Source: a virus. From it: 64,000 nt of DNA. The DNA is taken from positions 64,001-128,000 of IMG/VR virus record IMGVR_UViG_3300045988_085326; one strand, given 5' to 3'. Position numbers and translations under genes: made by a program. The notes under the pieces are model-generated. The model ran no database searches. It had not been told where the DNA came from and worked only from the letters and a program-made list of their open reading frames with translations. Of the stretch, positions 38,652-61,239 are shown one piece after another (within the stretch, counting starts at the first letter, position 1; each line of letters starts with the position of its first letter).

Positions 38652-38680
38652 ATTATAACAAAAATTTAGAACTTTGTCAA
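38652..38680 (-). promoter_or_regulatory. internal sigma-A-type promoter upstream of the portal gene
   Basis: Minus strand TTGACA-17-TATAAT. Confidence 0.5.
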
Positions 38681-42267: not shown

Positions 42268-43443
42268 CTACTTTTTCTTATTTCTACAACATTTACAAAT
42301 ACTGTAGAATCCATCTTTAGAAGTCTTATTTTTACTAAAGAATCTATTATGAGCAAGTTTAACTTCACCGCATCTTGAGCATCTTTTCCATTTGCCGCGT
42401 TCTTGCATAGTATAATACCAAATAAGATAATCTTCTTGTGCTTGTTCAGCTAATAATTTAGGAATCTTATTTCTCCACAAAGAAGAAATATATTCTACTG
42501 AATGTTTAATTCCATGTTTTTTATTTAATAGCTCTTGTATTTCAATATTTTGTTTTCCGTCAATTTTATAAATAAGCAAATCATAATATAATGGATATTT
42601 ATCTTTTAGTGTTCGTTCAATTAAATTATCTAAATCTTCCATTAAATAATATGAATCACTACTAAATTTACCCCATGCATCCTCTTTTAATTTTGAATAA
42701 TTACATAATAATGCAGATATATGTTTTTGGTCAAATAAAGAAACAAGTTCTGTATTTTTTACTTGACCATCTTCTGTTATTGTAATTTTTCCATCTAATT
42801 GTAACTTAAAAAAACTCTTAGTTACATTCATCATATACATAGGTTGTCGATATGCACTTTTCAATACATATTGGTCTTGACGCATTTCGATAAGTTGTTT
42901 TTTTAGTAAAAATTTACGTTTACCAGTTGCCGCCTTAAACTGTTTTTCTACATTATCAATCGCATCACGTAAATCTTTTAAGCCAGGAATTTCTTTAATA
43001 TCTTCTTCAGTAATAGTTACTTTAGGCATAAAAATAATATTTTTATCATTTGCAATCATATTATAGATACCATCTTCACCATTTTCTAATTGCCCAGCTA
43101 ATCCTTGAAATGATGTCTCTCTCCTATTTACAGTTACCATTCTATTGTCAGTTAATATCTTTTTCTTTTTTCTTTCTTCTTTATCCATTGCAAAAATAAT
43201 GTAATCTGATAAAATTGTTAAATATTTATTAGTAAGCTGTTCAGGAGGCGTCTCATCAATAATTTTTTTAACTAATTCATTTCGCTCTTGCGGAGTTTGT
43301 AAAGAATAATCTAATTTACGAGCAGGTTTAATATTTTCTTCTATTAACTGCTCTTCTATATTCTCATTTTCATCTTGGTAGTCTTCTGTATCTGCCTCAT
43401 CTTCTTCCACTAGAGCTACTTCTTTTTCATCTAAATCTGCCAT
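42268..43443 (-). CDS. hypothetical acidic protein with C-terminal CxxC...CxxC, ~391 aa (start at MADLDEK with AAGGAG RBS)
   Basis: First gene of the leftward operon. The longer ORF start at 43485 lacks an RBS; ATG 43443 has one. Confidence 0.45.
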   Translation of the reverse strand: MADLDEKEVALVEEDEADTEDYQDENENIEEQLIEENIKPARKLDYSLQTPQERNELVKKIIDETPPEQLTNKYLTILSDYIIFAMDKEERKKKKILTDNRMVTVNRRETSFQGLAGQLENGEDGIYNMIANDKNIIFMPKVTITEEDIKEIPGLKDLRDAIDNVEKQFKAATGKRKFLLKKQLIEMRQDQYVLKSAYRQPMYMMNVTKSFFKLQLDGKITITEDGQVKNTELVSLFDQKHISALLCNYSKLKEDAWGKFSSDSYYLMEDLDNLIERTLKDKYPLYYDLLIYKIDGKQNIEIQELLNKKHGIKHSVEYISSLWRNKIPKLLAEQAQEDYLIWYYTMQERGKWKRCSRCGEVKLAHNRFFSKNKTSKDGFYSICKCCRNKKK

Positions 43444-43473
43444 AAGAGCGCTCCTTTCTTTTCTTCTAATTAT

Positions 43474-43502
43474 AGTATAGCACAAATTTTTTCTTTTGTC
43501 AA
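43474..43502 (-). promoter_or_regulatory. sigma-A-type promoter for the leftward structural operon
   Basis: Minus strand reads TTGACA-17-TATACT. Confidence 0.6.
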
Positions 43503-43522
43503 CTCGTTTAATGATACTTTAA

Positions 43523-43551
43523 TTGATTTATTTAAAAATAAATGATATAAT
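43523..43551 (+). promoter_or_regulatory. sigma-A-type promoter for the rightward early region
   Basis: TTGATT-17-TATAAT. Divergent partner of the promoter at 43474..43502. Confidence 0.6.
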
Positions 43552-46063: not shown

Positions 46064-46311
46064 CTATTCGTTTTTAGATTTTCAAAATGCATTTGGAGAT
46101 TTTTTGGACGAGGCCAAATCATTTTCACAAAGTCAAAAAATTTTTTTCCCGAAATATACCCCGGGGTATTTTTTCTAGTACGTCAGATTCTTGTAGACTT
46201 CTTTCAAGAGCAAGATAAATAGACAGCCCCACATAATAAAGAACTGCGGGAAGTCGTTTAATGAGCATAAGGTTTAGCTATCTTATGCTAACACGCTTAC
46301 TCATAAGAATA

Positions 46312-46378
46312 AACACATTAATGTAATTTAATAATAGATAATTTATTTTATTGTAATTGTAAATTACATTAATGTGTT
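46312..46378. repeat. perfect 19-bp inverted repeat AACACATTAATGTAATTTA...TAAATTACATTAATGTGTT around a 29-nt AT loop; each arm contains the sub-palindrome ACATTAATGT
   Basis: Seen directly. Located in the 490-bp non-coding gap before the first promoter cassette, immediately upstream of the GC hairpin at 46383. Confidence 0.7.
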
Positions 46379-46553
46379 CGCTGGCTCGCGTGCGGTCATG
46401 GCGAGCCGCGATTCTTGTCAAGTAGTAATGTTGTACAATTTTTTTGCCAAATGTTTGTGCATTATTATAATAGATTCTATCCCGAAATGACTTGACACGT
46501 AGAGTGTTATGTGATATAGCATAATTACAGAAAGGGAAAGAGAGGTAACAAGC

Positions 46554-46700
46554 ATGATTACAAAGAAATTTGATTACAAAGGACAGATGATTAACTATTT
46601 CAATAAAGTAAGAAAGAATCCAAATATTAGTGCATGTTATTGTAGTTTCTCTTGTGTTCATGGGTGCTATGTAGTAGAGTACTGTTACAAAGAAAGATAA
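46554..46700 (+). CDS. small Cys-rich protein, 48 aa (not in ORF track)
   Basis: Promoter plus canonical leader GGGAAAGAGAGGTAACAAGCATG. CYCSFSCVHGCYVVEYC. Confidence 0.45.
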   Translation: MITKKFDYKGQMINYFNKVRKNPNISACYCSFSCVHGCYVVEYCYKER

Positions 46701-46804
46701 TCTTTCAACAAAAAAGTCTAATAAAACGCTTGACACACAAAGATATTCATGCTATAATAAATACATAAAGAACAAAGAAAACAACACAAAGAGAGGTTGA
46801 TAAT

Positions 46805-47125
46805 ATGATTAAAGAGTATCAAGTAACACTTATTTGTGAGACAGGACAATACAGACCAGTAAGCGCCATTATTAAGGCAGATGATAAGACTGCGGAAGTC
46901 ATCGGTATTGATGCTTTCAAGCAACAAATCCGCACACAAGGTATTACAAAAATATGCCAAAAAAGGTATTGGGGTAGTTCAGATTTAAAGAGGTATCATT
47001 ATACAAAAGTAAAAATGAGAGAGTATGACAAAGAAAAAATCGAAAAAGAAAATGCAGAACGCTATGAGAAAATAAAGCGGGAACGCGGTTGGATTACCAC
47101 AGACATAGACAAGGGAGAACAATAG
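46805..47125 (+). CDS. hypothetical early protein, 106 aa
   Basis: Promoter TTGACA-17-TATAAT at ~46730 and RBS AAGAGAGG. Confidence 0.55.
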   Translation: MIKEYQVTLICETGQYRPVSAIIKADDKTAEVIGIDAFKQQIRTQGITKICQKRYWGSSDLKRYHYTKVKMREYDKEKIEKENAERYEKIKRERGWITTDIDKGEQ

Positions 47126-47226
47126 TTCTCTCTTTTTTGTCCCTTGTTGATAACGTTAAAAAATTATGGTATAATAATAATGTAAAGAAAAATAAAGACA
47201 ATAGAATAAAGAAAGGAGCAGAACCA

Positions 47227-47328
47227 ATGAAGCTTAGTTTAGACGAACTAACTGCTTTAAAGCTTGTACTTGAGTTCGTATCTGTTAAAGACTTGCTTAT
47301 ATCAGCAATAAATAACTTTGCAGAGTAA
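47227..47328 (+). CDS. small hypothetical protein, 33 aa
   Basis: Promoter TTGATA-17-TATAAT at ~47147 and RBS AAAGGAGCAG. The N-terminal 46 codons of the track ORF lack an RBS. Confidence 0.3.
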   Translation: MKLSLDELTALKLVLEFVSVKDLLISAINNFAE

Positions 47329-47549
47329 GAAGATATTCACTCTAAAGATAATGCAGACTTGTGCTTTAAAGCTATTACTTCATTTCTGAAATAATTTATT
47401 TCGGAGACCGTACACGTTCAAGGTGCGGTCGGTTCACTCCATAGTGGTATACAGCCAGATATTTTTTGCCAAAAAGTCTGGCTTTTCGCTTGACAAAGTT
47501 ATCCTGAAATGCTATAATAAATGTATCAAAGGAAAGAGAGGTAAATACA

Positions 47550-47669
47550 ATGTCATTGATGTATACAAACAAGGAAGCGTTTGAGAGAGTAAAAAGATTC
47601 TTAGAAGTTAATCAGTACTCATTTGAGTTTTCCATTTCAAATGGACAATTTTATATAAAAATTACTTAA
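47550..47669 (+). CDS. small hypothetical protein, 39 aa (not in ORF track)
   Basis: Promoter at ~47489 and leader AAAGGAAAGAGAGGTAAATACAATG. Confidence 0.4.
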   Translation: MSLMYTNKEAFERVKRFLEVNQYSFEFSISNGQFYIKIT

Positions 47670-47675
47670 TAAGGG

Positions 47676-47704
47676 TTGACAAACTACAAAGAACGTGTTA
47701 TACT
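47676..47704 (+). promoter_or_regulatory. early sigma-A-type promoter
   Basis: TTGACA-17-TATACT. The ORF-track TTG start is actually the -35 element. Confidence 0.65.
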
Positions 47705-47735
47705 TAATGTATCAAATGAAAGAGAGGTAAGTAAA

Positions 47736-47906
47736 ATGAATGAGAAGTTTAAAGGTATGATAGATGACATAATAAGAAAGTTTGGTTTTGAGGATATTCA
47801 CACTATTATCTTCTGCGGAATGTGTGAGAGAGCAGATGTTCCTCTCAATTCAATTTATGAAACCTATGATGAATACATGAGTTTAGATATAATGCTCGAT
47901 GAATAA
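47736..47906 (+). CDS. small hypothetical protein, 56 aa
   Basis: ATG after AGAGAGG RBS. Rho-independent terminator at 47893..47919. Confidence 0.5.
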   Translation: MNEKFKGMIDDIIRKFGFEDIHTIIFCGMCERADVPLNSIYETYDEYMSLDIMLDE

Positions 47907-48055
47907 TCGAGCATTTTTTACGTCGCGGCGCGTACGACCCTTGCGCGCCGAATTTGCGCATTATTATATTGTACCACATTTTTCGCTCGCTGTCAATAGA
48001 CAAATTGCACAAAGATTGAATCCCGAAATTGTGCAATATTTTTTTAAAAAAAGTA

Positions 48056-48084
48056 TTGACGTACTCGTACTCACGTGCTATAAT
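48056..48084 (+). promoter_or_regulatory. early sigma-A-type promoter with upstream A-tract
   Basis: AAAAAAAGTATTGACG-17-TATAAT. Confidence 0.65.
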
Positions 48085-48118
48085 GTATTTACAAGGTAAG
48101 GAAAGAGAGGAAAACAAA

Positions 48119-48574
48119 ATGACAAAGGAAACAATGATTAGAAATTATAGAAAATTCAGTGCGGCTGATAGTTATATATTAGGCTTTATTTATAACCATG
48201 AGGTTTATGCGGTAGAGGTTGCGGAGATAATGCCTAGATACATGAGAGTAGAACACGAAAGCAGTAAAAAAGGCGGTTGTGCAAAATTACAGTTGAGATT
48301 GCCGAAAAATTATCAAGAACAGTTAATTAGAAAAGGTGCGGTTGTTATCGGTTCAGAAAATATCTTAAATGGAGAATATAATAAAGGCGTTGAGTTTGAA
48401 AGAGTTATTTCTGAAATGAATGGAATAGCATTTAGAGGTAAAGACAACGAGCCATTTTATAAAGCAGGCGACTTAAATATAAATGGTAAAGAAATACAAA
48501 TAAAATTTAATGGTGCTCAAATTGTAGTAGAAAGAACCTTAAAAAAATTACAAAAAATGCAAAAAAATGCTTGA
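48119..48574 (+). CDS. hypothetical early protein, 151 aa
   Basis: ATG following leader AAGGAAAGAGAGGAAAACAAAATG. Confidence 0.55.
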   Translation: MTKETMIRNYRKFSAADSYILGFIYNHEVYAVEVAEIMPRYMRVEHESSKKGGCAKLQLRLPKNYQEQLIRKGAVVIGSENILNGEYNKGVEFERVISEMNGIAFRGKDNEPFYKAGDLNINGKEIQIKFNGAQIVVERTLKKLQKMQKNA

Positions 48575-48634
48575 CAAACTGATTACCGTATGGTATTATA
48601 ATTATAGAAAGAGAGAGAAAGAGAGGTATTCAAA

Positions 48635-49114
48635 ATGAGAAAAACATTAGTATTCGATATGGACGGAACAATCGCAGACCTTTATGGAGTGAATGGTTGG
48701 TTAGAAAATCTTAGAGAAGAAAACGCAAGACCTTATATAGAGGCAAAACCGCTGTATGATATGGATGTTCTTGCAAGTATCTTAGGACTTTTAAGATTGA
48801 ATGGTTGGACAATAGCAATCACAAGCTGGCTTTCAAAAGAAAGCACAAAAGCCTATGATAAAAAAGTAAGAGAAGCCAAAAAAGAATGGCTTGCAAAATA
48901 TAACTTCCCTTATGATGAAATCCATCTTGTAAAGTATGGCACAACAAAAGCCAACTGCACTAGAAAAAATGGTGGTTTCCAGATTTTAGTAGATGATAAT
49001 GAGGAAGTTCGCAAGAGTTGGCACTTAGGCGATACAATCAACGCAAACGAAAACATCATTGAAAAACTGGTTGACTTACTGGTTGCGGAGTTTATTCATA
49101 CTCCGCAACTTTAA
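48635..49114 (+). CDS. HAD-superfamily 5'(3')-deoxyribonucleotidase-like protein
   Basis: HAD motif I LVFDMDGTIAD at the N-terminus and ILVDDN (motif IV). Size and architecture of the NT5C family. Confidence 0.55.
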   Translation: MRKTLVFDMDGTIADLYGVNGWLENLREENARPYIEAKPLYDMDVLASILGLLRLNGWTIAITSWLSKESTKAYDKKVREAKKEWLAKYNFPYDEIHLVKYGTTKANCTRKNGGFQILVDDNEEVRKSWHLGDTINANENIIEKLVDLLVAEFIHTPQL

Positions 49115-49133
49115 AAATTTTTCAAAAAAAGTA

Positions 49134-49162
49134 TTGACAACGTGCAAATAATTTGTTATACT
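49134..49162 (+). promoter_or_regulatory. early sigma-A-type promoter
   Basis: AAAAAAAGTATTGACA-17-TATACT. Confidence 0.6.
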
Positions 49163-49193
49163 TAATGTATCAAATGAAAGAGAGGAAAACAAT

Positions 49194-49346
49194 ATGACGA
49201 TTGAAAGAAGCAATGATACAAATTATCCTTACACAATAAAAGGCGGTTGGGGAGATAAAGTTTATTGTTCTCTTGATAGTTTAAAAGAATTAAAAAGAGA
49301 AATCAATAAAATTTTAAAAGAGGAAAAAGCTAAAAATCAGAAATGA
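49194..49346 (+). CDS. small hypothetical protein, 50 aa (not in ORF track)
   Basis: Leader AAAGAGAGGAAAACAATATG. Terminator 49326..49363. Confidence 0.45.
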   Translation: MTIERSNDTNYPYTIKGGWGDKVYCSLDSLKELKREINKILKEEKAKNQK

Positions 49347-49806
49347 TTTTTAGCTTTTTTATTGTGTGCGGGCCGCGCACGTTTCTCGCGCGGCCGAAAT
49401 TTCATTATACCATAGTCCTTGAGGTTTTGTCAAGCGTTTTCCTCATAAATACTACACAAAAAGAACTCCCGAAATTTGGTCATTATTACCTATTGATTTT
49501 TAATAAAAATTTTGCTATAATATAGAAGGTAAGGGAAAGAGAAAGCAACAAAAAAGAAATTAAAAAAAGTTGAAAAATCTCTTGACAAACCGCGACACAA
49601 GTGCTATAATAAAGATACAAGATAGGAAAGGGTGTCGGACTTCTACCAAAGTACAGGTAGTGAATTTCTTGAAAAAGAGGTTGATTGCTTAGGAAAAGAA
49701 GTTCAGCTCTTTGAAAACAAAATCCTAAAAAATCTTGAAAAAGTGCTTGACAAGTCACTGTAAACATGGTATAATAAACTTATCAAATGAAAGAGAGGTA
49801 GTAAGT

Positions 49807-49959
49807 ATGAGTAAGAAAGAGTTCCTTAAGAAGTGGAGAAATGATAGAGATTTCCGCTATGACATGAGAAGAAAGGGCATTAAGGTTATTCAGGATAATG
49901 TAATTTTCTTCAACCCTGATGGCTCTGTTCGGGCGATGGCTGGTGCTTACATTCAGTAA
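49807..49959 (+). CDS. small basic protein, 50 aa
   Basis: Promoter at ~49751 and leader AGAGAGGTAGTAAGTATG. Confidence 0.45.
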   Translation: MSKKEFLKKWRNDRDFRYDMRRKGIKVIQDNVIFFNPDGSVRAMAGAYIQ

Positions 49960-50064
49960 GCACCGCAAGAAAAAAAAATAAAAAAACTATTGACAACTAA
50001 ATAAAGAAATGTTATAATAAAGATGTAAAGAAAACAAATAAAAAAAAGAAAGAGGTAATGAATT

Positions 50065-50433
50065 ATGGAAAAGAAAATGACTAAGAAAGAGTGGTTCGCA
50101 GTATTAGCAAGTGTGGTTGAGGCTTCTGAAATGGAGAATAAGACCGAGGCTCTGGCTTTCATCAATCACGAGGTTGAACTGTTAGAGAAGAAGTCCGCAA
50201 AGAGCGGTCAGACCAAGACACAGAAAGAGAATGTCGGCATTATGGAGGAAATCAAGTCCGCACTTGGCGAGGTTGGTAAGGCTGTTACCATTACAGAGTT
50301 GCAGGCGGCTTCCGCTGAAATGGCTGAATATAGCAATCAGAAATTATCCGCTTTGCTGAAAAAGTTGGTTGAGAGTGGCGAGGTTGTAAAGACCACCGAG
50401 AAAAAGAAATCTTACTTCTCCCTTGCGGAGTAG
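50065..50433 (+). CDS. paralog family A member 1: 122-aa protein with C-terminal winged-helix-like segment
   Basis: Promoter at ~49985. 70% identity with 53053..53439, ~50% with 55397..55762. Conserved AKSGQTKTQKEN and SNQKLSAL...TTEKKKSYF. Confidence 0.6.
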   Translation: MEKKMTKKEWFAVLASVVEASEMENKTEALAFINHEVELLEKKSAKSGQTKTQKENVGIMEEIKSALGEVGKAVTITELQAASAEMAEYSNQKLSALLKKLVESGEVVKTTEKKKSYFSLAE

Positions 50434-50634
50434 TAAGCAACCGAAAGGGCAAGACAGAAATGTCTTGTCCTTTTTTGATTTGGCGGCGCGCGGACAATCG
50501 CCCCGCGCCGATTTGCGTGTCAAGTAGTATATTGCATAAAAATTTTGTGCGATTTTTGTGCATTTTGCCTATTGTATTTATCCCGAAATGCTGTTATAAT
50601 GTATTTACAAGGTAAGGAAAGAGAGGTAAACAAA

Positions 50635-51111
50635 ATGACAAACTTATTATTTTTATTTATCATAATGAACGCACTTAATGTAGTAATGCAGACTATTAAA
50701 AGTCTTTGCACTGTAAACTCTGGTAAAACAGTTGCGGCTATTGTAAACGCGGTAGCTTATGGTTTTTATACAGTAATTGTAGTTTACATGAGTTGTGACC
50801 TTCCGCTTTGGGAAAAATCTTTGATTATCGGTCTTTGTAATCTTGTTGGTGTTTACATTGTAAAACTTTTTGAGGAAAAGAACCGCAAAGATAAATTGTG
50901 GAAAGTAGAATTGACAGTTAGAGCAGAAAGAACAGATGTTCTTGCTCGACAGTTAGAGGAACTTGTAATTCCGCATAACTACATTACAAATGTTGGCAAA
51001 TGGACTGTATTTAATATCTATTGTAATACACAAAAGGAAAGTGCTTTTGTTAAGGATTTAGCAATTAAGCACAAAGCAAAATTCTTTGTATCTGAAAGCA
51101 AGCGGTTATAA
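50635..51111 (+). CDS. membrane protein, 158 aa, two N-terminal TM helices plus soluble C-terminal domain
   Basis: ATG after canonical leader. Hydrophobic LLFLFIIMNALNVV and AYGFYTVIVVYM segments. Confidence 0.5.
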   Translation: MTNLLFLFIIMNALNVVMQTIKSLCTVNSGKTVAAIVNAVAYGFYTVIVVYMSCDLPLWEKSLIIGLCNLVGVYIVKLFEEKNRKDKLWKVELTVRAERTDVLARQLEELVIPHNYITNVGKWTVFNIYCNTQKESAFVKDLAIKHKAKFFVSESKRL

Positions 51112-51209
51112 TTACCGCTTGCACGGATAAAAAATTTTAAAAAAGTATTGACAAATAAAAAAGAAAATGATATAATAATTATAGAAAGAAAGAAAGAGAG
51201 GAAAACAAT

Positions 51210-51407
51210 ATGAGAAAATTAGTTTATGTAGTAGGCGGTCAGGAAATTACATCTTACGAAAAGGCTAGAGAAATTCAGCCGAGCGGTCAGCTTCAGATAA
51301 AACTTGATGAAATTCGAGAAGAAGCTAAGGTTAATCCCGAAACGCTGGCAAAGAGACAGGCTTACTTTGCAAGGCGTAGAGCTGAAAAGGCGGTGGCTTC
51401 CAATTAA
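51210..51407 (+). CDS. small hypothetical protein, 65 aa
   Basis: Promoter at ~51150 and RBS AGAGAGG. Confidence 0.5.
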   Translation: MRKLVYVVGGQEITSYEKAREIQPSGQLQIKLDEIREEAKVNPETLAKRQAYFARRRAEKAVASN

Positions 51408-51487
51408 GGAAGCTACCAAATAGGGCTTGACAAATAATCAAAAAAATGGTATTATAATCATAGAAAAAGAAAAGAGAGGTGCTTACT

Positions 51488-51688
51488 ATGAGAATTAATG
51501 TTGAAATGAAATGTCCTTTTTGTGGCTCTACCCATGCAGTTGAAGTAAACCTTGCACAGTTTGAGGCTTGAGAGAATGGCGAACTCATTCAAAACGCAAT
51601 GCCAGACTTATCAGCAACTGAGCGAGAGCAGTTAATTTCTCACATTTGTCCTAAATGTCAAGCAGATTTTTTTGAAGGAGAAGAGTAA
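51488..51688 (+). CDS. Cys4 zinc-ribbon protein split by an in-frame TGA (51569..51571)
   Basis: MRINVEMKCPFCGSTHAVEVNLAQFEA-TGA-ENGELIQNAMPDLSATEREQLISHICPKCQADFFEGEE. The two CxxC pairs lie on either side of the stop. Own promoter at ~51425 and terminator at ~51677..51703. Confidence 0.4.
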
Positions 51689-51706
51689 TCTTCTCCTTTT
51701 TTTGGT

Positions 51707-51733
51707 CGCGCCGCGCACGTTCCTCGCGCGGCG
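51707..51733. repeat. one copy of the recurring extreme-GC hairpin CGCCGCGCACGTTCCTCGCGCGGCG. Similar hairpins at 46383..46410, 47924..47950, 49370..49395, 50483..50510, 53937..53964, 54994..55020 and ~56497..56520
   Basis: 7-8 bp all-GC stems in a ~30% GC genome. Each follows the ordinary terminator of the upstream gene and precedes a TGTCAAG and TCCCGAAAT module and the next promoter. Confidence 0.7.
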
Positions 51734-51828
51734 ATTTTTTCATTATACCATACCGCCGCAAATTTGTCAAGCGAAATGTGAGAAAAAATTGCACAAATCC
51801 GCATCCCGAAATTTGTGCAATTTGTATG

Positions 51829-51857
51829 TTGACTTTTGTATGTAGCGATGCTATAAT
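51829..51857 (+). promoter_or_regulatory. early sigma-A-type promoter preceded by palindromic ATTGCACAAAT...ATTTGTGCAAT site
   Basis: TTGACT-17-TATAAT. The inverted repeat 51788..51822 is centred on TCCCGAAAT. Confidence 0.6.
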
Positions 51858-51891
51858 GTATTTACAAGGTAAGGAAAGCGAGGTAAACAAA

Positions 51892-52068
51892 ATGGCACTT
51901 GACAAGGCAATTATGAGCGGTAAAGAACACCGCAAAATATATAGAGGTAGTAAGAGTATTGATAGGACTTGTCGCAATCATGGTTCTTGTGATTGGTGTC
52001 GTGAAAATCGACAATATAAAAATTTAAAAAAATTGCAAAAAACTCTTGACATGATGAAAGAGGTCTGA
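51892..52068 (+). CDS. small Cys-containing protein, 58 aa
   Basis: Canonical leader AAGGAAAGCGAGGTAAACAAAATG. CRNHGSCDWC. Confidence 0.5.
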   Translation: MALDKAIMSGKEHRKIYRGSKSIDRTCRNHGSCDWCRENRQYKNLKKLQKTLDMMKEV

Positions 52069-52108
52069 TATAATAGTATTACAAGGTAAGGAAAGAGAGG
52101 ATAAAAAA

Positions 52109-52822
52109 ATGCAGAAAGAATATTTTATGGTACTTGATACAGAAACCGCAAACAGTGTAGAACAGCCACTTCCTTATGATATTGGCTATGCTATATGCGA
52201 TAGACAAGGAAATGTTGAAATTGCAAGAAGTTTTGTAGTCGCTGAAATGTTCCTTGACAATAAAGACCTTATGCAGTCCGCATATTTCGCTGAAAAGATT
52301 CCGCAGTATTGGGAAGATATCAAAAGCGGAAAAAGAGAGTTAAAAACTTTCTACAATATCCGCAAACAGTTGAAAGCAGATATGCAAGCCTATGGAGTAA
52401 CCAAAGTTGGGGCTTACAATATGGGCTTTGACAAGAGAGCTTTAAACAATGATACACGCTATATCACAAAGTCTTTCTTGCGGTGGTTCTTCCCTTATGG
52501 CACAGAGTTCTTTTGTATCTGGAATATGGCTTGTAGTGTGATTTTAAACAGACCGAGTTATATCAAATTTGCCCTTGAAAATGGTTTTGTTTCCGAGGCT
52601 GGAAATATTCAGACTTCCGCGGAATGTGCATATAGATATATTACAAAAGACACTGATTTTGTGGAAAGTCATACAGGTTTGGAAGATGTGCTAATTGAAG
52701 TCGCAATTATGGCATACTGTTATAGACAACATAAGCCTTTTGAAAACTCTATCAATTCCGCTTGTTGGCGAAAAGTACAGAGAGCGAGAAAAGAAATGGA
52801 ATTAAAACAAGTGTTCGCTTAG
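52109..52822 (+). CDS. DEDDh-family 3'-5' exonuclease (DnaQ/RNase T-like)
   Basis: Exo I FMVLDTETAN, Exo II YNMGFD, Exo III SHTGLEDV. Confidence 0.65.
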   Translation: MQKEYFMVLDTETANSVEQPLPYDIGYAICDRQGNVEIARSFVVAEMFLDNKDLMQSAYFAEKIPQYWEDIKSGKRELKTFYNIRKQLKADMQAYGVTKVGAYNMGFDKRALNNDTRYITKSFLRWFFPYGTEFFCIWNMACSVILNRPSYIKFALENGFVSEAGNIQTSAECAYRYITKDTDFVESHTGLEDVLIEVAIMAYCYRQHKPFENSINSACWRKVQRARKEMELKQVFA

Positions 52823-53052
52823 GCGAACGCTTGTTCGAGACGTGCACAAAATTTTCAAAAAGTCAAATAAAAAATTTTTAAAAAAACTATTGACAATAAA
52901 AAATAAAAGTGTTATAATAGTATTATCGAAAGGAAAGAGGTTTGAAAAGAGCAAAGAAAAAAAATAAAAAAAACTCTTGACAAACTAAAAACCTTATGAT
53001 ATAATAAATACATAAAGAACAACAAATAAAAATTTTAAGAAAGAAAGAGGTA

Positions 53053-53439
53053 ATGAGCATGGAAAAGAAAATGACTAAGAAAGAGTATTTTGCAGTATTG
53101 GCTGAGGTAGTAGCAAATTCCGACATGGAAAACAAAGAGGGCGCACTTGCCTTTATCGCTCACGAGGTTGAACTTCTTGAAAAGAAGTCCGCAAAGAGCG
53201 GTCAGACTAAAACTCAAAAGGAAAATGCTGAAATCCTTGTAAAGATTAAGACTGAACTTGCAGAGGTTGGCAAGGCTGTTACTATCACTGAACTTCAGGC
53301 GGCTTCTGCTGAAATGGCACAGTACAGTAATCAGAAACTTTCCGCACTCTTAAAGAAACTTGTTGAGAGTGGCGAGGTTGTAAAAACTACTGAAAAGAAA
53401 AAGTCCTACTTTGCAGTAGCTGAAACCGAGGGCGAGTAA
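53053..53439 (+). CDS. paralog family A member 2, 128 aa
   Basis: Tandem promoters at ~52890 and ~52975. Close paralog of 50065..50433. Confidence 0.6.
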   Translation: MSMEKKMTKKEYFAVLAEVVANSDMENKEGALAFIAHEVELLEKKSAKSGQTKTQKENAEILVKIKTELAEVGKAVTITELQAASAEMAQYSNQKLSALLKKLVESGEVVKTTEKKKSYFAVAETEGE

Positions 53440-53560
53440 TCGCCCTCCCCAAAGGGAAAGAAAATAAAAAAAATACTTGACATTCGCCACATTGTCTGAT
53501 ATAATAATCATAGAAAGAGAGGTAAACAACATGGATAAAGAAAAACTTATCAATTAGATA

Positions 53561-53896
53561 ATGAAAGAGTGTGCAGAGGATGGCGAACCTGTCACAAGAG
53601 AAGAAACCGAAGAAATGGCGGAAATGGAATTGAAAGCCAAAAAAGATTGTCGGCGGTATGAGAGCGACAAACGAAAAGTCAAAAAGCCCTCTACAAGAGA
53701 AAAGAAAATTGATACCGAAAAAGCGCGGTTAATGGAACTGTTTAATTACTGTTTGCTTGAACCTAACCGCATTGATGATGAACTTCCTTTCAAAATTGAA
53801 TTTGTGTCAGTAGTTAATAATCAAAAAGAGATTACTTTCAGCATTGGCGAAAATGATTACTCACTTACACTGACAAAACACAGAAAGAAAAAATGA
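53561..53896 (+). CDS. paralog family B member 1, 111 aa, preceded in-frame by an 8-codon mini-ORF (53531..53557, MDKEKLIN-TAG)
   Basis: Promoter at ~53477. The canonical leader ATG is at 53531. A TAG stop comes 3 nt before ATG 53561 in the same frame. C-terminus resembles 55962..56381. Confidence 0.5.
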   Translation: MKECAEDGEPVTREETEEMAEMELKAKKDCRRYESDKRKVKKPSTREKKIDTEKARLMELFNYCLLEPNRIDDELPFKIEFVSVVNNQKEITFSIGENDYSLTLTKHRKKK

Positions 53897-54089
53897 TTTT
53901 AAGCAGGTTTCCTTGTGGGAGCCTGCTTTTTGATTTGGCGGCTCGCATGCGGTTGCCGCGAGCCGAATTTGCACACGTTAGTAATGTTGTACAATTTTTT
54001 ATTCAGATTTTTGTGCATTTTGCCTATTGTATTTATCCCGAAATGCTGTTATAATGTATTTACAAGGTAAGGAAAGAGAGGTAGTTAAA

Positions 54090-54389
54090 ATGAAAGCGAC
54101 TGGTATAGTAAGAAGAGTAGATGATTTAGGAAGAATAGTTATTCCAAGAGATATTCGAAGAATAATGCAAATCAAAGAAAGTGAACCAATGAAGTTTTTT
54201 GTAGATAAAGACGCTATTGTAATAAAAAAGATTGAGACTAATAGTTATACTTTAAGACAGACAGAAGATTGGGTAGAATTATTAGATGAAAAAGGGAAAG
54301 TATTGGCAGAAGGTCATAGTTTAAGACCAGAAGAAATCTTAACAGCACTGAATATTGATTTTGAAGTTGAAGAAGTTGAAGAAATGTAA
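54090..54389 (+). CDS. AbrB/MazE/SpoVT-family swapped-hairpin DNA-binding protein
   Basis: N-terminal MKATGIVRRVDDLGRIVIPRDIRR matches the AbrB-N signature (GIVR.VD.LGR.VIP.E.R). Confidence 0.75.
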   Translation: MKATGIVRRVDDLGRIVIPRDIRRIMQIKESEPMKFFVDKDAIVIKKIETNSYTLRQTEDWVELLDEKGKVLAEGHSLRPEEILTALNIDFEVEEVEEM

Positions 54390-54460
54390 ATTTTTTATTG
54401 ACAATAAACAAAAAGTATGATATAATAATTATAGAAACAAGGAAAGAGAGGAAAAAAAAG

Positions 54461-54712
54461 ATGTTTGTAAGAATCAATTATTCTAATGGCTATTGTGGTT
54501 GTGATGAATCAGAAGTTTTAGAAGTTGAAAATATTGAAGAAGCAGAAGTTTATGCGGCAGAGGGTATTCATGACTATGCTGAACCTTATACTTATGTAGC
54601 TACAGGTTGGGATGAAGGTTTTGAATCTGAGGAAGAAGAAGAAACCTATTATGAAAATTGTACTTTCGATATTGAAGAAATTACAGAAGAGGAATATCAA
54701 GAGGAAAAGTAA
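54461..54712 (+). CDS. highly acidic small protein, 83 aa
   Basis: Promoter at ~54398. About 35% Asp+Glu (ESEEEEETYYENCTFDIEEITEEEYQEEK). Confidence 0.5.
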   Translation: MFVRINYSNGYCGCDESEVLEVENIEEAEVYAAEGIHDYAEPYTYVATGWDEGFESEEEEETYYENCTFDIEEITEEEYQEEK

Positions 54713-54779
54713 TTTTTCTCTTGACAAACTCAAAAGAATCTGTTAGAATAAATATATCAAGAGAAAAAGAGGTAAAAGA

Positions 54780-54965
54780 ATGGAAGAACTGAAAGCCTTA
54801 GATATGATTTGGATAGTTATTAACCCTGATGGAACTTACGCGGGAACACCTTGCCTTACTTGGGAAGAAGCGAGAGAGCTTGTTGCACAGAAAGAAGGCA
54901 GGAGAGTTTTCAATCTTGACCCCAATGAAGAAGATGTAACAGAAAATGAAAATGGTTTGATTTAA
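54780..54965 (+). CDS. small hypothetical protein, 61 aa
   Basis: Promoter at ~54720. Terminator at 54966..54990. Confidence 0.45.
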   Translation: MEELKALDMIWIVINPDGTYAGTPCLTWEEARELVAQKEGRRVFNLDPNEEDVTENENGLI

Positions 54966-55396
54966 GAGGGCGCAAAGCCCTCTTTTTATTTGTCGCGCCG
55001 CGCACGTCCCTTGCGCGGCGATTTTGCCTTAACCTTTCATTATACCAAATTTTTTGCTAGATGTCAAGGGGTAAAAATAACTAAATCTAATTCCCGAAAT
55101 TTGTGCAATATTTCCTATTGATTTTTAATAAAAATTTTGCTATAATAAATACATAAAGAAAAGGAAATAAGTAGTGACTGTCAAGGCACTAAAAAATTCC
55201 AAAAAAAATAAAAAAAAAGTCTTGACAAATAAAAATGCTTATGTTATAATAAATACATAAGAAAGAGATAAAACAGAAAACAAGCACTGAAAAAACTCTT
55301 AAAAAAAAATAAAAAAAATGCTTGACAAGAAAAACTGAATATGGTATAATAAAGATGTAAAGAAAAACAAACAAAGAAAGGTAAGAGGTGTTGAGT

Positions 55397-55762
55397 ATGG
55401 CAGAAAAGAGAATTACAAAGAAAGAGTATTTTGCAATGGTAGCAGGTGTTGTTGAGCAGGTTAATCCTACAAACAAGGAAGAGTTGTTGGCTTTTATCAA
55501 CCATGAGGTTGAGTTGCTGGAAAAGAAGTCTGCTAAGTCTGGACAGACTAAGACACAGAAAGAGAATGTCGGCATTATGGAAACTATTTCTGAGGTACTT
55601 GCTGATATGGGTAAGCCTGTAACTATCACTGAACTGATGAAAGATGAGCGGTTGTCCGCATACTCTAATCAGAAGTTGTCCGCACTGGTTAGACAGATGC
55701 CTAATGTGATTAAAACTACAGAGAAAAAGAAGTCTTACTTCTCTCTTGTAGACACAGAGTAG
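55397..55762 (+). CDS. paralog family A member 3, ~121 aa
   Basis: Three stacked promoters at ~55099, ~55222, ~55319. Conserved LAFINHEVELLEKKSAKSGQTKTQKENVGIME and SNQKLSAL...TTEKKKSYFSL. Confidence 0.6.
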   Translation: MAEKRITKKEYFAMVAGVVEQVNPTNKEELLAFINHEVELLEKKSAKSGQTKTQKENVGIMETISEVLADMGKPVTITELMKDERLSAYSNQKLSALVRQMPNVIKTTEKKKSYFSLVDTE

Positions 55763-55961
55763 GCGAACATCTGTTCGGGGTGGAGAGGCTCAAATCCTCT
55801 CCCTACTCCTCAAAGACATTTTGAAAATCCTCCTTTCTATGTGGTGTGGGGCTTTTGCCCCATTCCACAAACCTTTTAAAAGATTTTCAAAAAAACTATT
55901 GACATTATAAAAATTTTTTGTTATAATTATTTTAGAAAGTTAAGAAAGAGAGGTTTTCAGT

Positions 55962-56381
55962 ATGAAATACAATTTGAATGGTAAAAATATCGATATTCCA
56001 GACGCTGATATTGAGTGGTCAATGAAAAGCCTTGAATTGACAAAAGAAGAAGCAATTCAGATGTGGCTTGAAGATGAAGGCTATCTCAGAAATGAAGAAC
56101 AAGAGGAACTGGAACGCAAGGCAAAGGAAAACCGCATTACAGCAACTATCCATCAGGCAAGCGCAAAAGACCCTCATAAAAAGACACAAAAAGAGCGGGT
56201 TCGCAAGGAAAATCCGACAAAAGAAATGGTAATTCGCGAAATTGCGGCACTTTTACCTAAATTTGCGGAAGATATTGAGATTTTGAATGTCGGAAAGCTG
56301 ATTTCTTTCAGAATTGGAGAGGAAAAGTACGAAATTGACTTAAAACAGAAAAGAAAACCGAAAGAAACCGCTAAAAAGTAG
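55962..56381 (+). CDS. paralog family B member 2, 139 aa
   Basis: Promoter at ~55896. C-terminus ISFRIGEEKYEIDLKQKRKPK parallels ITFSIGENDYSLTLTKHRKKK of 53561..53896. Confidence 0.5.
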   Translation: MKYNLNGKNIDIPDADIEWSMKSLELTKEEAIQMWLEDEGYLRNEEQEELERKAKENRITATIHQASAKDPHKKTQKERVRKENPTKEMVIREIAALLPKFAEDIEILNVGKLISFRIGEEKYEIDLKQKRKPKETAKK

Positions 56382-56931
56382 CGGTTTCCACATAATTTTC
56401 AGATAATTTGGCGGTTTTGGGCAGTTTTCACAAGAAAACTGCTCTTTTTTGTGCATTTTTTCTACTTGACAACAATATAATTATGTGCTATAATTGTCGG
56501 CGCGTCGCCGATGGTGATGCGCCGAATCCGCCTCCCCGCACGCCATATGCAATTTTTTCGTAGATGTTTGAAATCTATCATCATTTCCCCAGTTTCCCGA
56601 AAATGCCCCAGTCCAATGTATCATATGGCCGCGCCCGCCGCATGTTTGAAAATTCAAAAAATTTATAGTATAATATTTATATAAAATGAAGGAAAATATA
56701 TAAATTTGGCAGTCCATCTAAAATCTTAATACATTCATTTACTTTTATCACTGCCGCCAACATTTTTACATAAAGCCCCTGCCGCAATAAAATTGCTTAA
56801 ATACAGTTTACTCAATCATTTAAACGGAGTTGTCGGAGACACTTGAAAATTCAAAAAATTTATAGTATAATATTTATATAAAATGAAGGAAAGAACAAAA
56901 GAAATAAATCAACGATAGGAGATTATAATTT

Positions 56932-57500: not shown

Positions 57501-57652
57501 TTCATTAAAATTATTTACAAATCTTCACTTCTTCACTTCTTCATTAAAATTATTTACAAATTTTTCTTCCTTCATTAAAATTATTTACAAATTTTTCTTT
57601 CTTCATTAAAATTATTTACAAATCTTCACTCCTTCATTAAAATTATCCAAAT
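57501..57652. repeat. iteron-like array: five direct copies of TTCATTAAAATTATTTACAAAT at ~31-bp spacing (first spacing 39 bp)
   Basis: Copies at 57501, 57540, 57571, 57602 and 57633 (last copy degenerate). Spacers are short T/C-rich (TTTTCTTCC / CTTCACTCC). Lies between convergent genes. Confidence 0.8.
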
Positions 57653-60124: not shown

Positions 60125-60847
60125 TTGAAAGCAATTCAATCTGGCAATACTTTTCGTATTTATGACAATAGCATGAAAACTTATGACCAGCTTCCGCCTA
60201 ACGCTTATCTTATCAATTTTAGCAAAGAAACGGGGTTTTACCTCACTCTTTATTCTGAAATTGATATTAAGGAAAAAGTGTATGGCGTTCATGAAGCTAA
60301 AGTTAATAAAGTTTTAAATGCATTTAACCAGTTTAAGCGGAATTTAGGTATTATTTTGAGCGGAGATAAGGGTATTGGTAAATCTCTGTTCTCTAAAATG
60401 CTAGCTCAACGCGGAATTGAGCAAGGATTGCCGCTTATCATCGCAAACTGCTATATCCCTGGTATTGGTGAGTATATTAATAGTATCGAGCAGGAAGTTA
60501 TTGTACTCTTCGATGAGTTCGATAAGACTTTCCAGAAATGCGGCGACCGTGACCCGCAGGCTGAAATGCTCACACTGTTCGATGGTATTGCACAAGGTAA
60601 GAAGCTCTTTGTTGTTACTTGTAATGATTTAAGAGGACTTAATAATTTCCTTGTGAATAGACCTGGTCGTTTTCATTATCATCTTAGATTTGAATATCCG
60701 AACGCCGCAGCCATCACTGAATATCTTACTGATGCTCTTGATGAAGCATATCATAAGGAGATTCCCGCAGTAATTGCATTTGCAGGTAAGGTTGACCTTA
60801 ATTATGACTGTTGCGAGCAATCGCATTTGAACTTAACTGCGGTTTAA
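60125..60847 (+). CDS. AAA+ ATPase, TTG start
   Basis: Walker A GDKGIGKS, Walker B VIVLFDEFD, second region of homology LVNRPGRFHYHL. RBS AGAGAGG 8 nt upstream of TTG. Confidence 0.65.
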   Translation: MKAIQSGNTFRIYDNSMKTYDQLPPNAYLINFSKETGFYLTLYSEIDIKEKVYGVHEAKVNKVLNAFNQFKRNLGIILSGDKGIGKSLFSKMLAQRGIEQGLPLIIANCYIPGIGEYINSIEQEVIVLFDEFDKTFQKCGDRDPQAEMLTLFDGIAQGKKLFVVTCNDLRGLNNFLVNRPGRFHYHLRFEYPNAAAITEYLTDALDEAYHKEIPAVIAFAGKVDLNYDCCEQSHLNLTAV

Positions 60848-61239
60848 GTTTTAGAGAAGCTATCGCTGACCTGAATATTATCAATCTTGATGCTGACTAC
60901 TATACTCTTGTTCTGGTTCTGAGCAATGGCGAAGAGCTGAAGATTAATGAGAGATTGGATACGTTCAGTTCCGAGGAGACTTACTCAGAGTTTTATGACC
61001 CTGAGATGCATAAGGACTTATATTACGTTCATTATACTCCGTCCAACAATCATTACGATTCTCACAGCAACCATTGCTGTATTAATGGAGAAGATTTACG
61101 ACTTGAGCTTCAATCTCATATTAATCCTAAGAGTGAGGATGAAGATTATAAAAAGTTATATCAGAAATATAAAGATGTTAAGGCGGTTCGACTTGAGTTA
61201 AGACGCCAGAAGGCTAGAGGTATTCATTACCTTGTATAG
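60811..61239 (+). CDS. ORF in the -1 frame overlapping the AAA+ gene end; possible C-terminal (lid) continuation by frameshift, or an independent gene starting at an internal ATG
   Basis: Open from 60808. Begins ...GLSFREAIADL resembling an AAA+ sensor-2/lid segment. No canonical start or RBS at 60811. Confidence 0.3.
   Translation: MRAIAFELNCGLSFREAIADLNIINLDADYYTLVLVLSNGEELKINERLDTFSSEETYSEFYDPEMHKDLYYVHYTPSNNHYDSHSNHCCINGEDLRLELQSHINPKSEDEDYKKLYQKYKDVKAVRLELRRQKARGIHYLV

Follow-up and report, generated by a model that had tools for sequence, protein, structure and literature searches.

The 64,000-nt stretch analysed here, referred to throughout as the window, comprises positions 64,001 to 128,000 of the virus record IMGVR_UViG_3300045988_085326 and has a GC content of ~31%. 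The minus strand carries structural genes between 1 and 43.5 kb, including a 2854-aa tape measure, a portal, a large terminase and a phage sigma-like gene, while the plus strand, from 43.6 to ~56.4 kb, encodes ~27 small genes, each preceded by a near-consensus TTGACA-17-TATAAT promoter with a TG extension and by a AAAGAGAGG Shine-Dalgarno sequence. Eighteen 12/12 matches to TTGACA-17/18-TATAAT with the TG extension lie within 45.5-57.5 kb, and A-runs are found upstream of the promoters. The subject of this analysis is a repeated module of ~200 bp, located at the junctions between the promoter-gene-terminator units at 46.1-56.6 kb, that combines a GC hairpin, a predicted backward-pointing promoter, operator-like motifs, and a forward promoter. 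These junctions had been singled out in an original prediction made from the sequence alone, which likened them to boundary repeats that shuffle early-gene cassettes.

No near-identical record to the window was found in the INPHARED phage collection. Judged by TerL and by a 237-aa exonuclease-like protein, the closest cultured phages are Enterococcus phages H1, EF1, and VRE9 and Geobacillus phage E3, and the metagenomic phage phAss-1 is likewise among the nearest, all with ~45% amino acid identity. phAss-1 was assigned by its authors to Clostridia/Eubacteriales hosts, in a paper that does not mention promoters, repeats, or hairpins (PMC10607447). The phage studied here is probably a large siphovirus-type phage with a sigma-A-driven early region and a host among gut or rumen Clostridia. 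Comparisons were made with L016, a 102-kb IMG/VR contig that is 97% identical to the window across the early region, and with a wider set of relatives (L016-L048), consisting of 33 loci of ~20 kb that encode homologues of the exonuclease-like protein at 45-99% identity.

Of the hairpins that separate the units at 46.1-56.6 kb, seven are strongly GC-rich, one (47406-47430) is weaker, and one (56497) is a variant located at the end of the series; they amount to 8-9 module copies in 10.5 kb, all of them directly oriented. The junctions are designated J1-J8 and lie near 46383, 47924, 49370, 50483, 51707, 53937, 54994, and 56497. Read along the plus strand, the intrinsic terminator of the upstream unit is followed by a GC-clamp hairpin, in class B junctions by a predicted consensus extended -10 sigma-A promoter on the opposite strand, and then by a control region, one to three forward sigma-A promoters, and a purine-rich leader with its Shine-Dalgarno sequence. 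The control region spans ~55-60 bp between back-to-back -35 boxes and holds the inverted repeat TTGCACAAA/TTTGTGCAA together with the oriented 9-mer TCCCGAAAT. Class B junctions have the layout hairpin, GAAATTTCC, ATTATA, CCAC, N12, TTTTGTCAAG, TTGCACAAA, N6 or N16, TCCCGAAAT fused to TTGTGCAA, and forward -35 and -10 boxes. Class A junctions, which have no antisense promoter and carry a short T-run directly after the hairpin, run as hairpin, (A)ATTTTTGTCAATAGGCAA, TTGCACAAA, ~N18, TTTGTGCAA, CTATTGnnn (the -35 region), TCCCGAAAT within the spacer, and TGnTATAAT. The module-bearing region is opened by a J0-type element with the layout TTTGGAGA..TTGGACGAGGCCAAA..T-run TCCCGAAATATACCCC. The elements in the window, all promoters and RNAs being predicted, are as follows.

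46087-46180, plus strand: J0-type element, conserved and non-coding, ending in a T-run and TCCCGAAAT (46147-46155), then a small hairpin ATACCCCGGGGTAT and a T-run; without a GC-clamp hairpin.
46383-46553, plus strand: J1, class A, with hairpin GGCTCGC/GCGAGCC at 46383-46407, TTGTCAAG at 46415-46422, forward promoter at 46444-46471, TCCCGAAAT at 46480-46488, a second forward -35 box at 46492, and leader and Shine-Dalgarno sequence up to the ATG at 46554.
47406-47550, plus strand: J1b, degenerate, with an 8-bp hairpin containing one G-U pair at 47406-47430 and TCCTGAAAT (47502-47510) in the spacer of a perfect forward promoter at 47490-47518.
47891-48118, plus strand: J2, class B, with terminator at 47891-47915, hairpin at 47926-47950, TTGCACAAA at 48005-48013, TCCCGAAAT at 48021-48029, TTGTGCAA at 48029-48036, forward promoter at 48056-48084, and the conserved leader up to the ATG at 48119.
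47968-47996, minus strand: J2 antisense promoter, TTGACA-17-TACAAT with TG extension, pointing towards the hairpin at 47926-47950; two-hairpin RNA, z = -2.5.
49324-49521, plus strand: J3, class B, with a bidirectional terminator at 49324-49359, hairpin at 49371-49395, TCCCGAAAT at 49467-49475, and forward promoter TTGATT-17-TATAAT at 49493-49521.
49404-49433, minus strand: J3 antisense promoter, TTGACA-18-TATAAT with TG extension, its -10 box 8 nt from the hairpin foot; predicted minus-strand RNA of ~75 nt with a terminator, z = -7.2.
50443-50634, plus strand: J4, class A, with terminator at 50443-50474, hairpin at 50484-50510, TGTCAAG at 50518-50524, TTGCATAAA at 50532-50540, TTTGTGCGA/TTTGTGCAT at 50544-50563, forward TTGTAT at 50572-50577, TCCCGAAAT in the spacer at 50581-50589, TATAAT at 50595-50600, and the conserved leader up to the ATG at 50635.
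51674-51892, plus strand: J5, class B, with terminator at 51674-51699, hairpin at 51709-51733, TTGCACAAA at 51789-51797, TCCCGAAAT at 51804-51812, TTTGTGCAA at 51812-51820, forward promoter at 51829-51857, and the conserved leader up to the ATG at 51893.
51742-51770, minus strand: J5 antisense promoter, a perfect TTGACA-17-TATAAT with TG extension, its -10 box 8 nt from the hairpin foot; two-hairpin RNA, z = -5.0.
53901-54089, plus strand: J6, class A, with terminator at 53901-53928, hairpin at 53939-53965, TTTGTGCAT at 54010-54018, TCCCGAAAT at 54036-54044 in the spacer of the forward promoter (-10 box at ~54050), and the conserved leader up to the ATG at 54090; without TGTCAAG.
54964-55146, plus strand: J7, class B, with terminator at 54964-54984, hairpin at 54996-55020, TCCCGAAAT at 55092-55100, TTTGTGCAA at 55100-55108, and forward promoter TTGATT-17-TATAAT at 55118-55146.
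55039-55067, minus strand: J7 antisense promoter, a perfect TTGACA-17-TATAAT with TG extension; two-hairpin RNA, z = -3.6.
56466-56645, plus strand: J8-type terminal element, with a perfect forward promoter at 56466-56494 abutting a 13-bp GC hairpin at 56497-56525, CCATATGC and T6 at ~56546-56562, TCCCGAAAA at 56595-56603, and TCATATGG with a GC block at ~56621-56640.

The repetition of the module is real and far beyond chance, as originally claimed, but the copies follow two distinct architectures and not the single order of elements that had been described. An ordinary terminator had been placed first at every junction; intrinsic terminators do lie upstream of the J2-J7 hairpins, but the J8 hairpin (56497) follows a promoter and is accompanied by few of the other elements. 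The site at 46147, which had been counted with the module, has no GC hairpin and belongs to a different conserved element, and of the nine listed TCCCGAAAT sites eight are exact copies, but the one at 56595 is the inexact variant TCCCGAAAA. Numerous near-perfect TTGACA-17-TATAAT promoters do follow the junctions, and TCCCGAAAT does occupy different positions with respect to the forward promoter; the conserved leader, however, is found at four of the eight junctions, with a variant at 52068, and not at the rest. The stretches 50520-50637 and 53975-54092, which had been given as >95% identical, share 82% identity over 118 nt, with only the right-hand ~85 nt being near-identical. None of the minus-strand promoters had been noticed, nor had the inverted repeat TTGCACAAA/TTTGTGCAA or the degenerate ninth copy, in which the hairpin at 47406-47430 is accompanied by TCCTGAAAT.

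The J0-type arrangement is also present in L016, L017, L021, L023, L026, L027, and L028, so that in distant relatives, too, it stands where the module-bearing region begins; the element at 46087-46180 gave no significant fold (z = 0.24). Homologues of the J8-type element were found in L024, L036, L037, L040, L041, L042, and L044. Elements of this type consist of GC hairpins that are each followed by C(C/T)ATATG(C/G), and in many relatives they close the early region (L040 12878-13150; L024 13991-14090). They might represent an origin, a packaging site, or a small RNA. A separate long AT-rich inverted repeat with 19-bp arms (AACACATTAATGTAATTTA ... TAAATTACATTAATGTGTT), at 46312-46378, belongs to a non-coding stretch of ~300 bp and directly precedes the J1 hairpin on its 5' side.

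The GC hairpins are as exceptional in this genome as had been proposed: the whole window contains only seven 30-nt blocks of at least 75% GC, at 46379, 47920, 49364, 50479, 51702, 53936, and 54990, and these are the J1-J7 hairpins. The 95 unique hairpins collected from the window and its relatives have 84 different 5' arms, with stems of 7-13 bp that are ~85% GC and of mixed G/C rather than G-run/C-run composition, and loops of 3-13 nt without conserved sequence. Arms pair with their own partners at 95.4% of positions, compared with 40.9 ± 1.9% when partners are swapped, although the copies were chosen by a hairpin finder, a selection that inflates such pairing percentages and has to be set against them. 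When 25 copies were aligned without gaps and centred on the loop, pairing was found in 97% of cells versus 75% in shuffles, and 32 cells carry double-sided changes versus 7.2 in shuffles, values that were each reached in 0/500 shuffles; slid registers of the same alignment yield 22-50% pairing. When 28 class B copies were aligned with MAFFT, their differing loop lengths shifted the stems against one another and RNAalifold therefore returned zero pairs; single-sequence fold z-scores are weak for GC-rich 45-mers (-0.1 to -2.3), the energies being unexceptional. Support for the hairpin thus comes from covariation and not from folding energy, and the covariation argues that it is the structure of the stem, rather than its sequence, that is conserved and under selection. 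A conserved loop beginning with ACG had appeared plausible in the window and was dropped, since only 8 of the 95 loops start in this way. Rfam searches with gathering thresholds and with E-values gave no match on any module element.

The hairpin may act as DNA, as a plus-strand RNA in the form of a back-up terminator, or as a minus-strand RNA in the form of a 5' cap, possibly depending on the class of the junction. If the junctions were merely tandem back-up terminators combined with ordinary promoters, their similarity would reflect recent duplication. Such an origin would fit with the location of every window hairpin just after a terminator or T-run, with the J7 hairpin, which is the only one of the eight window copies to pass a simple terminator scan, and with the near-identity of the right halves of J4 and J6, which suggests recent copying. 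A T-rich tail, however, is present at only one of the eight window hairpins and at 25 of the 95 overall, the stems covary rather than being copied, and TCCCGAAAT, TTGCACAAA/TTTGTGCAA, and the antisense promoter are kept in phages with 45-70% identical proteins and in a 50%-GC genome. We accordingly have strong doubts about this explanation.

The variability of the stems bears equally on the proposal that the hairpins are dedicated mobile-DNA sites (integron attC-like, HUH-recombinase hairpins, or MITE-like) or mimics of CRISPR repeats, to which we assign a negligible probability. Folded GC hairpins are indeed found at cassette boundaries, and one crossover maps to a hairpin foot, but there is no integrase or HUH gene in the window, the hairpins have no conserved core sequence, neither terminal inverted repeats nor target duplications were seen in the junction sequences read, and all copies are co-oriented and limited to one region. 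A CRISPR-repeat mimic would need a fixed sequence, whereas 84 of the 95 arms differ, and no hairpin had an Rfam CRISPR-repeat match; both CRISPR-repeat mimicry and attC-like sites were rejected on the grounds that the stems are too variable.

An anti-terminator function had also been offered as an alternative; were the hairpins to act in processive antitermination like put or nut sites, their RNA would modify RNA polymerase so that it passes downstream terminators. In 7 of the 95 copies, including J8 (56466-56525), a forward promoter abuts the hairpin, which would then be the first RNA made, as is likewise the case for put of phage HK022. Most hairpins, however, lie after the terminator and before the forward promoter and are therefore not part of the forward transcript, their sequence is unconstrained, and they have no boxA-like conserved partner. 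Since the hairpin is downstream of the terminator on which it would act, antitermination is poorly supported and scarcely credible here.

Both module classes recur in dozens of related uncultured phages. GC hairpins followed ~100 nt later by TCCCGAAA on the gene strand are found in nearly all of the 33 related loci, in agreement with the original expectation that relatives would carry the module at their cassette junctions. The module is kept in relatives whose neighbouring exonuclease is only 45-70% identical, and class B modules can be recognised in phAss-1, which has a GC content of 50%. In Enterococcus phage H1, the closest relative in culture, there are no more than 1-2 degenerate copies, and this phage is for that reason not a ready experimental model. 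A scan with CCATTATACCA-N10-16-TTTTGTCAA recovered the full module in 33 of 143 viral matches versus 5 of 123 genome matches, the latter on short contigs of metagenome-assembled genomes; the pattern was discarded as a module probe, being a generic strong promoter pattern that matches many unrelated bacteria. The module is real, strongly non-random, and conserved within the clade, and literature searches on the motif and on antisense-promoter/hairpin repeats returned nothing relevant and no description of such a module.

TGTCAAG had been regarded as a separate motif, 25-45 nt from the hairpin at all junctions. It is CTTGACA read backwards, a reversed -35 box located 5-45 nt away from the hairpin, and in J2, J3, J5, and J7 it forms the -35 box of a predicted minus-strand promoter; it is missing from J6 and J8 and reads TGTCAAT in J2. 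The antisense promoter has the form TTGACA-17/18-T(G)nTATAAT (TACAAT in J2), which appears on the plus strand as CATTATACCA...TTTTGTCAAG, and the only strong minus-strand promoter matches inside the plus-strand region are those at 47996, 49433, 51770, and 55067. The related sequence TTGTCAAG, with 17 matches versus 2.8 expected, is the reverse complement of CTTGACAA, the -35 context of promoters in the window, and most of its matches are forward promoters read from the other strand. The distance from the antisense -10 box to the hairpin foot is 8 nt in J3 and J5 and 17-18 nt in J2 and J7. As these promoters are aimed at the GC hairpin, the predicted transcripts start with the hairpin and run into the reversed upstream terminator, and they are predicted to fold as two hairpins (z = -2.5 to -7.2 in J2, J3, J5, and J7). 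The same geometry was examined in 54 non-redundant class B copies, for which the -10 and -35 matches served as the selection pattern and were not counted as evidence. The antisense spacer is 17 or 18 nt in these copies, the TG extension is present in 53 of the 54, the 9-mer, matched as TCCYRAAA, lies 35-39 nt from TGTCAA in 45 of 51, and the back-to-back -35 boxes are 55-59 bp apart in 29 of 44.

Such minus-strand units might be genuine small-RNA genes of ~60-100 nt, composed of the 5' GC hairpin, an A-rich linker, and the reversed upstream terminator, whose products would act in trans as decoy or anti-defence RNAs or in cis as antisense regulators of the 3' end of the upstream mRNA. The strong conservation of the promoter, with its -10 box at a fixed 8-9 nt from the hairpin foot, the two-hairpin fold of the predicted RNAs, and the terminator-like end of 22 out of 54 copies speak for this possibility. 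Neither the sequence nor the loop of the hairpin is conserved, however (84 different arms; an ACG loop start in 8/95), and sequence-specific action in trans is therefore unlikely; in addition, the units match no Rfam family, wobble pairs are without strand bias, over half of the copies have no minus-strand terminator, and class A copies lack the promoter altogether. We consider dedicated small-RNA genes improbable.

The 9-mer TCCCGAAAT is present in eight exact copies in the window versus 0.28 expected, all on the plus strand and all within 46147-55100, and in a set of 29 non-redundant related loci the gene strand carries 79 copies of TCCCGAAA versus 4 on the other strand, with TCCCAAAA being as common as TCCCGAAA among relatives. 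Four contexts can be distinguished, namely the spacers of forward promoters, the interval between back-to-back -35 boxes, the J0-type element, and the J8-type terminal element, and sites of this type are confined to 46-56.6 kb of the window. Within promoter spacers the motif starts 11-16 nt (mostly 13-15) before the -10 box, a loose phasing that argues against core promoter contact. As a test of whether the motif replaces a poor -35 box, promoters with and without it were compared, and perfect -35 boxes were found in 43% versus 59%, a modest difference.

Three paralogues of a family designated A (50065-50433, 53059-53439, and 55397-55762) are encoded in the same region, each behind two or three stacked perfect promoters. 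These proteins are ~122 aa long and 68-84% identical, and the family is found in 28-29 of the 33 related loci, with similar genes in phAss-1. A structural model with a pLDDT of 82.8 is composed of helices and a C-terminal winged helix, and the best Foldseek matches of the C-terminal half are repressors of the ArsR/SmtB/MarR type, with weak E-values of 0.015-0.07. The family A winged-helix protein is a candidate for binding the motif, and a better one than the AbrB-like protein (54090..54389) that had also been proposed. The latter was rejected as a general binder because its gene is limited to the window and L024.

Binding of the junctions by a shared regulator, which the original prediction had raised as an alternative, is plausible from the sequence and compatible with the explanation favoured below. 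It can also be taken further, such that the junctions would be primarily a regulon of operator/stoperator-like sites and recombination would be a by-product. TCCCGAAAT and TTGCACAAA/TTTGTGCAA would then form the binding site of one phage regulator, which would block initiation in class A spacers and block or modulate transcription in class B junctions, J0, and J8. This overlaps with the favoured explanation and differs only in which function maintains the repeats; we treat it as a serious contender, though not as the expected outcome. The motif is strictly oriented (8/8 in the window), occurs in four contexts that include promoter spacers, lies at a fixed distance from the antisense -35 box, and is associated with somewhat weaker -35 boxes, and a conserved winged-helix family is encoded in the region. 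There is moreover a precedent in the operators and stoperators of cluster A mycobacteriophage L5, which are bound by gp71, are asymmetric and orientation-dependent, and are found in promoters and at intergenic sites (PMC9283540). The strict orientation and dual location of TCCCGAAAT recall these sites, both being short, asymmetric, multi-copy sequences that are always oriented with transcription and placed in promoters and short intergenic spaces. The present motif is, however, a 9-mer rather than a 13-mer, with 8-9 copies in the early region rather than >20 genome-wide; it varies among relatives, its spacer position is not rigid, and its binding by a protein is a prediction. Neither an immunity repressor nor an integrase was found in the window, with ~38 kb of the genome lying outside it, and there is no sign of lysogeny; lysogenic silencing in the style of L5 is without support because no integrase or immunity-repressor-like gene is present in the window.

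A second comparison is offered by the p4/p6 switch region of phi29, in which the divergent early (A2b/A2c) and late (A3) sigma-A promoters are separated by inverted repeats that bind protein, such that one protein could repress one direction and favour the other. The junctions described here likewise place inverted repeats between back-to-back sigma-A promoters of a Firmicute phage. In phi29, however, there is one such region per genome and the leftward promoter drives real genes, whereas here many cassette boundaries carry such an arrangement, and nothing but a hairpin and a terminator lies ahead of the predicted backward promoter.

Differences in cassette content between close relatives coincide with the hairpins. 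Between the window and L016, all three early-region cassette differences (3/3) end at most 16 nt from a GC hairpin. In the first, a promoter, a 50-aa gene, and a terminator at 49113-49353 of the window are missing from L016, and the right edge falls in the T-run before the J3 hairpin; in the second, the cassette at ~51410-51694 is swapped for an unrelated gene in L016, with homology resuming at the T-run before the J5 hairpin. In the third, L016 lacks ~1 kb comprising the J7 hairpin, the AbrB-like gene and two further genes, and the right half of J6. The one module that L016 has at this place is chimeric, joining the J6 hairpin to the right half of J7, and its crossover, between ...CCGA and TTTTGCC, sits at the hairpin's 3' foot. 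When four genome pairs were compared, a hairpin lay at most 33 nt from an edge of 10 of the 17 gaps in the early region, whereas intervals of that size cover, by a rough estimate, ~7% of the early region. Accessory cassettes (AbrB-like, g49194, and g54780) are sporadic among distant relatives.

The claim of PeSL-like boundaries at which cassettes are shuffled withstands these comparisons, which are of the kind originally suggested as a check. PeSLs of T4-like phages are composite cassettes of a sigma-70 promoter and a GC stem-loop located in hyperplastic regions; their subclasses differ in how the parts are placed with respect to one another, they mark the ends of indels, crossovers occur in or beside the stem-loop, and both mini-circles and terminator activity have been demonstrated (PMC2839356, PMC4122927). 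The module likewise unites a strong host-sigma early promoter, an AT-rich upstream region, and a GC-rich stem-loop in one intergenic element, is present in many copies and several subclasses in a region of small, variable genes, and is the point at which indels and replacements between close relatives end, the crossovers falling within the stem-loop or next to it. It is an analogue of the PeSL and not a homologue, sharing no sequence and hence no evident common descent with the T4-type elements and belonging to a Firmicute siphovirus rather than a Proteobacteria myovirus. It is also about three times longer, has a conserved opposite-strand promoter abutting the hairpin, and carries the operator-like motifs TCCCGAAAT and TTGCACAAA/TTTGTGCAA, and its hairpin mostly has no terminator tail and follows a separate ordinary terminator. 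In the literature found, the antisense promoter and operator-like motifs have not been described before as additions to the PeSL, and no later paper extends PeSL-type elements, or the concept of regulatory repeats as joints in the shuffling of phage genes, beyond the T4-like phages that infect Gram-negative bacteria.

Small early genes arrayed in short promoter-gene-terminator operons are also characteristic of the host-takeover module of Bacillus phage SPO1. Each of its many operons has its own terminator, a strong ribosome-binding site, and a sigma-A promoter that is near consensus and of the extended -10 type. A repeated module of hairpins, antisense promoters, or operators is not known from SPO1.

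The explanation that we favour, and judge on balance to be the probable one, is that the junctions are composite PeSL-like insulator/promoter cassettes which double as substrates for recombination and include operator-like sites as well as a conserved antisense promoter. What the sequences show directly is the anatomy of the module, its conservation, the covariation of the stems, and the coincidence of indel edges with hairpins, whereas promoter activity, the minus-strand RNA, insulation, protein binding, and the mechanism of recombination are inferred. Each junction cassette would be both the boundary and the regulatory region of promoter-gene-terminator units. Because the predicted antisense start lies a few nucleotides from the hairpin, the hairpin of class B, the commonest class, would form the 5'-terminal stem-loop of a short back-firing transcript that enters the upstream terminator, and the terminator, hairpin, and head-on promoter would together insulate the unit from read-through of very strong upstream promoters. 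The motifs would be operator sites through which one DNA-binding protein, for which family A is the candidate, co-regulates all units. The 8-9 directly oriented copies within 10 kb would constitute portable homology, so that recombination at or beside the hairpin could insert, delete, or swap whole cassettes.

Several observations weigh against this explanation. Every promoter and RNA of the module is a consensus prediction, a terminator-like site is found within ~100 nt for only 22 of the 54 predicted minus-strand transcripts, and many of these transcripts would run antisense into the upstream gene. A minus-strand promoter abuts 40 of the 95 hairpins, and a plus-strand promoter 7, with J8 among the latter; being present at only 40 of 95, the antisense promoter cannot be the general purpose of the hairpin. 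Stem mismatches comprise 21 G:T and 15 A:C, without strand bias, and therefore do not tell whether one of the strands acts as RNA, or which. Family A and the motif are linked by co-occurrence within one clade, and in L043, which has modules, no family A gene was detectable within the 20 kb examined. Where an edge of a cassette difference coincides with a hairpin, it is usually the right one, while left edges are mostly at gene ends or promoters, and the data therefore fit equally well with a hairpin that begins a conserved unit in the absence of targeted recombination. In a broader and noisier count of megablast alignment ends, 5 of 101 lie at most 40 nt from a hairpin versus 1.7 expected, a weak enrichment.

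A bolder extension of the insulator/promoter cassette, which we regard as unlikely, is that the junctions form a distributed switch. A small phage protein such as family A would bind TCCCGAAAT/TTTGTGCAA at every boundary, shut the forward promoters, and leave or activate the back-firing ones, and the hairpin-capped antisense RNAs and head-on polymerases would silence the upstream cassettes, leading to a genome-wide early shut-off in which the nodes double as recombination joints.

That Firmicute phages of an abundant gut and rumen clade have an independent and more elaborate counterpart of the PeSL suggests that the strategy is general. The module provides a sequence handle with which to delimit accessory cassettes, maybe including anti-defence genes, in metagenomic phage genomes, and the antisense promoter abutting a GC hairpin, together with the oriented TCCCGAAAT, could reveal how dozens of very strong promoters are insulated and co-regulated. 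The parts of the module may also serve as compact insulators for synthetic biology in Firmicutes.

Strong promoters are not limited to the junctions. The relatives L016-L048 have an extreme promoter density, with 773 distinct plus-strand extended -10 promoters, of which 454 have a perfect TTGACA, and perfect sigma-A-type promoters are also found in the structural operons of the window at 38680, 28019, and 18674. The sigma-like gene on the minus strand (42268-43530; phrog_5767, with no match in Pfam) is predicted to be driven by a near-perfect sigma-A promoter at 43502 and lies back to back with the first plus-strand gene. Just beyond the module-bearing region, two identical 50-nt direct repeats (56646-56695 and 56843-56892), 197 nt apart, each hold a TTGAAA-17-TATAAT promoter and a leader, and a 31-nt unit (TTTACAAATTTTTCTTYCTTCATTAAAATTA...) is present in three tandem copies at 57553-57645 on the plus strand.

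Two early genes contain in-frame stop codons. The open reading frame (ORF) starting from the well-placed ATG at 53532 (53532-53896) has a TAG at codon 9 (53556-53558), a position that is CAG (Gln) in the 97%-identical L016 and also Q in L017. Phages of the phAss-1 type decode TAG as Gln (PMC10607447), and the large late genes of the window are intact under the standard code. The TAG is either an isolated nonsense mutation with a restart at the ATG at 53561 or a Gln codon. A TGA at 51569-51571 splits a small CxxC...CxxC zinc-ribbon ORF at 51488-51688 (...FEA*ENGEL...), in a cassette that is missing from L016 and L017.

At the other end of the window, the minus strand at 689-1688 contains an Rfam RT-2 RNA match (1454-1688; 94 bits versus a gathering score of 40) directly upstream of a reverse-transcriptase ORF (689-1465; Pfam RVT_1). 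The overlapping ORFs at 60125-60847 and 60811-61239 match consecutive parts of the phrog_2376 ATPase (positions 1-229 and 230-361), and this split match suggests a frameshift, a recoded stop, or a sequencing error.

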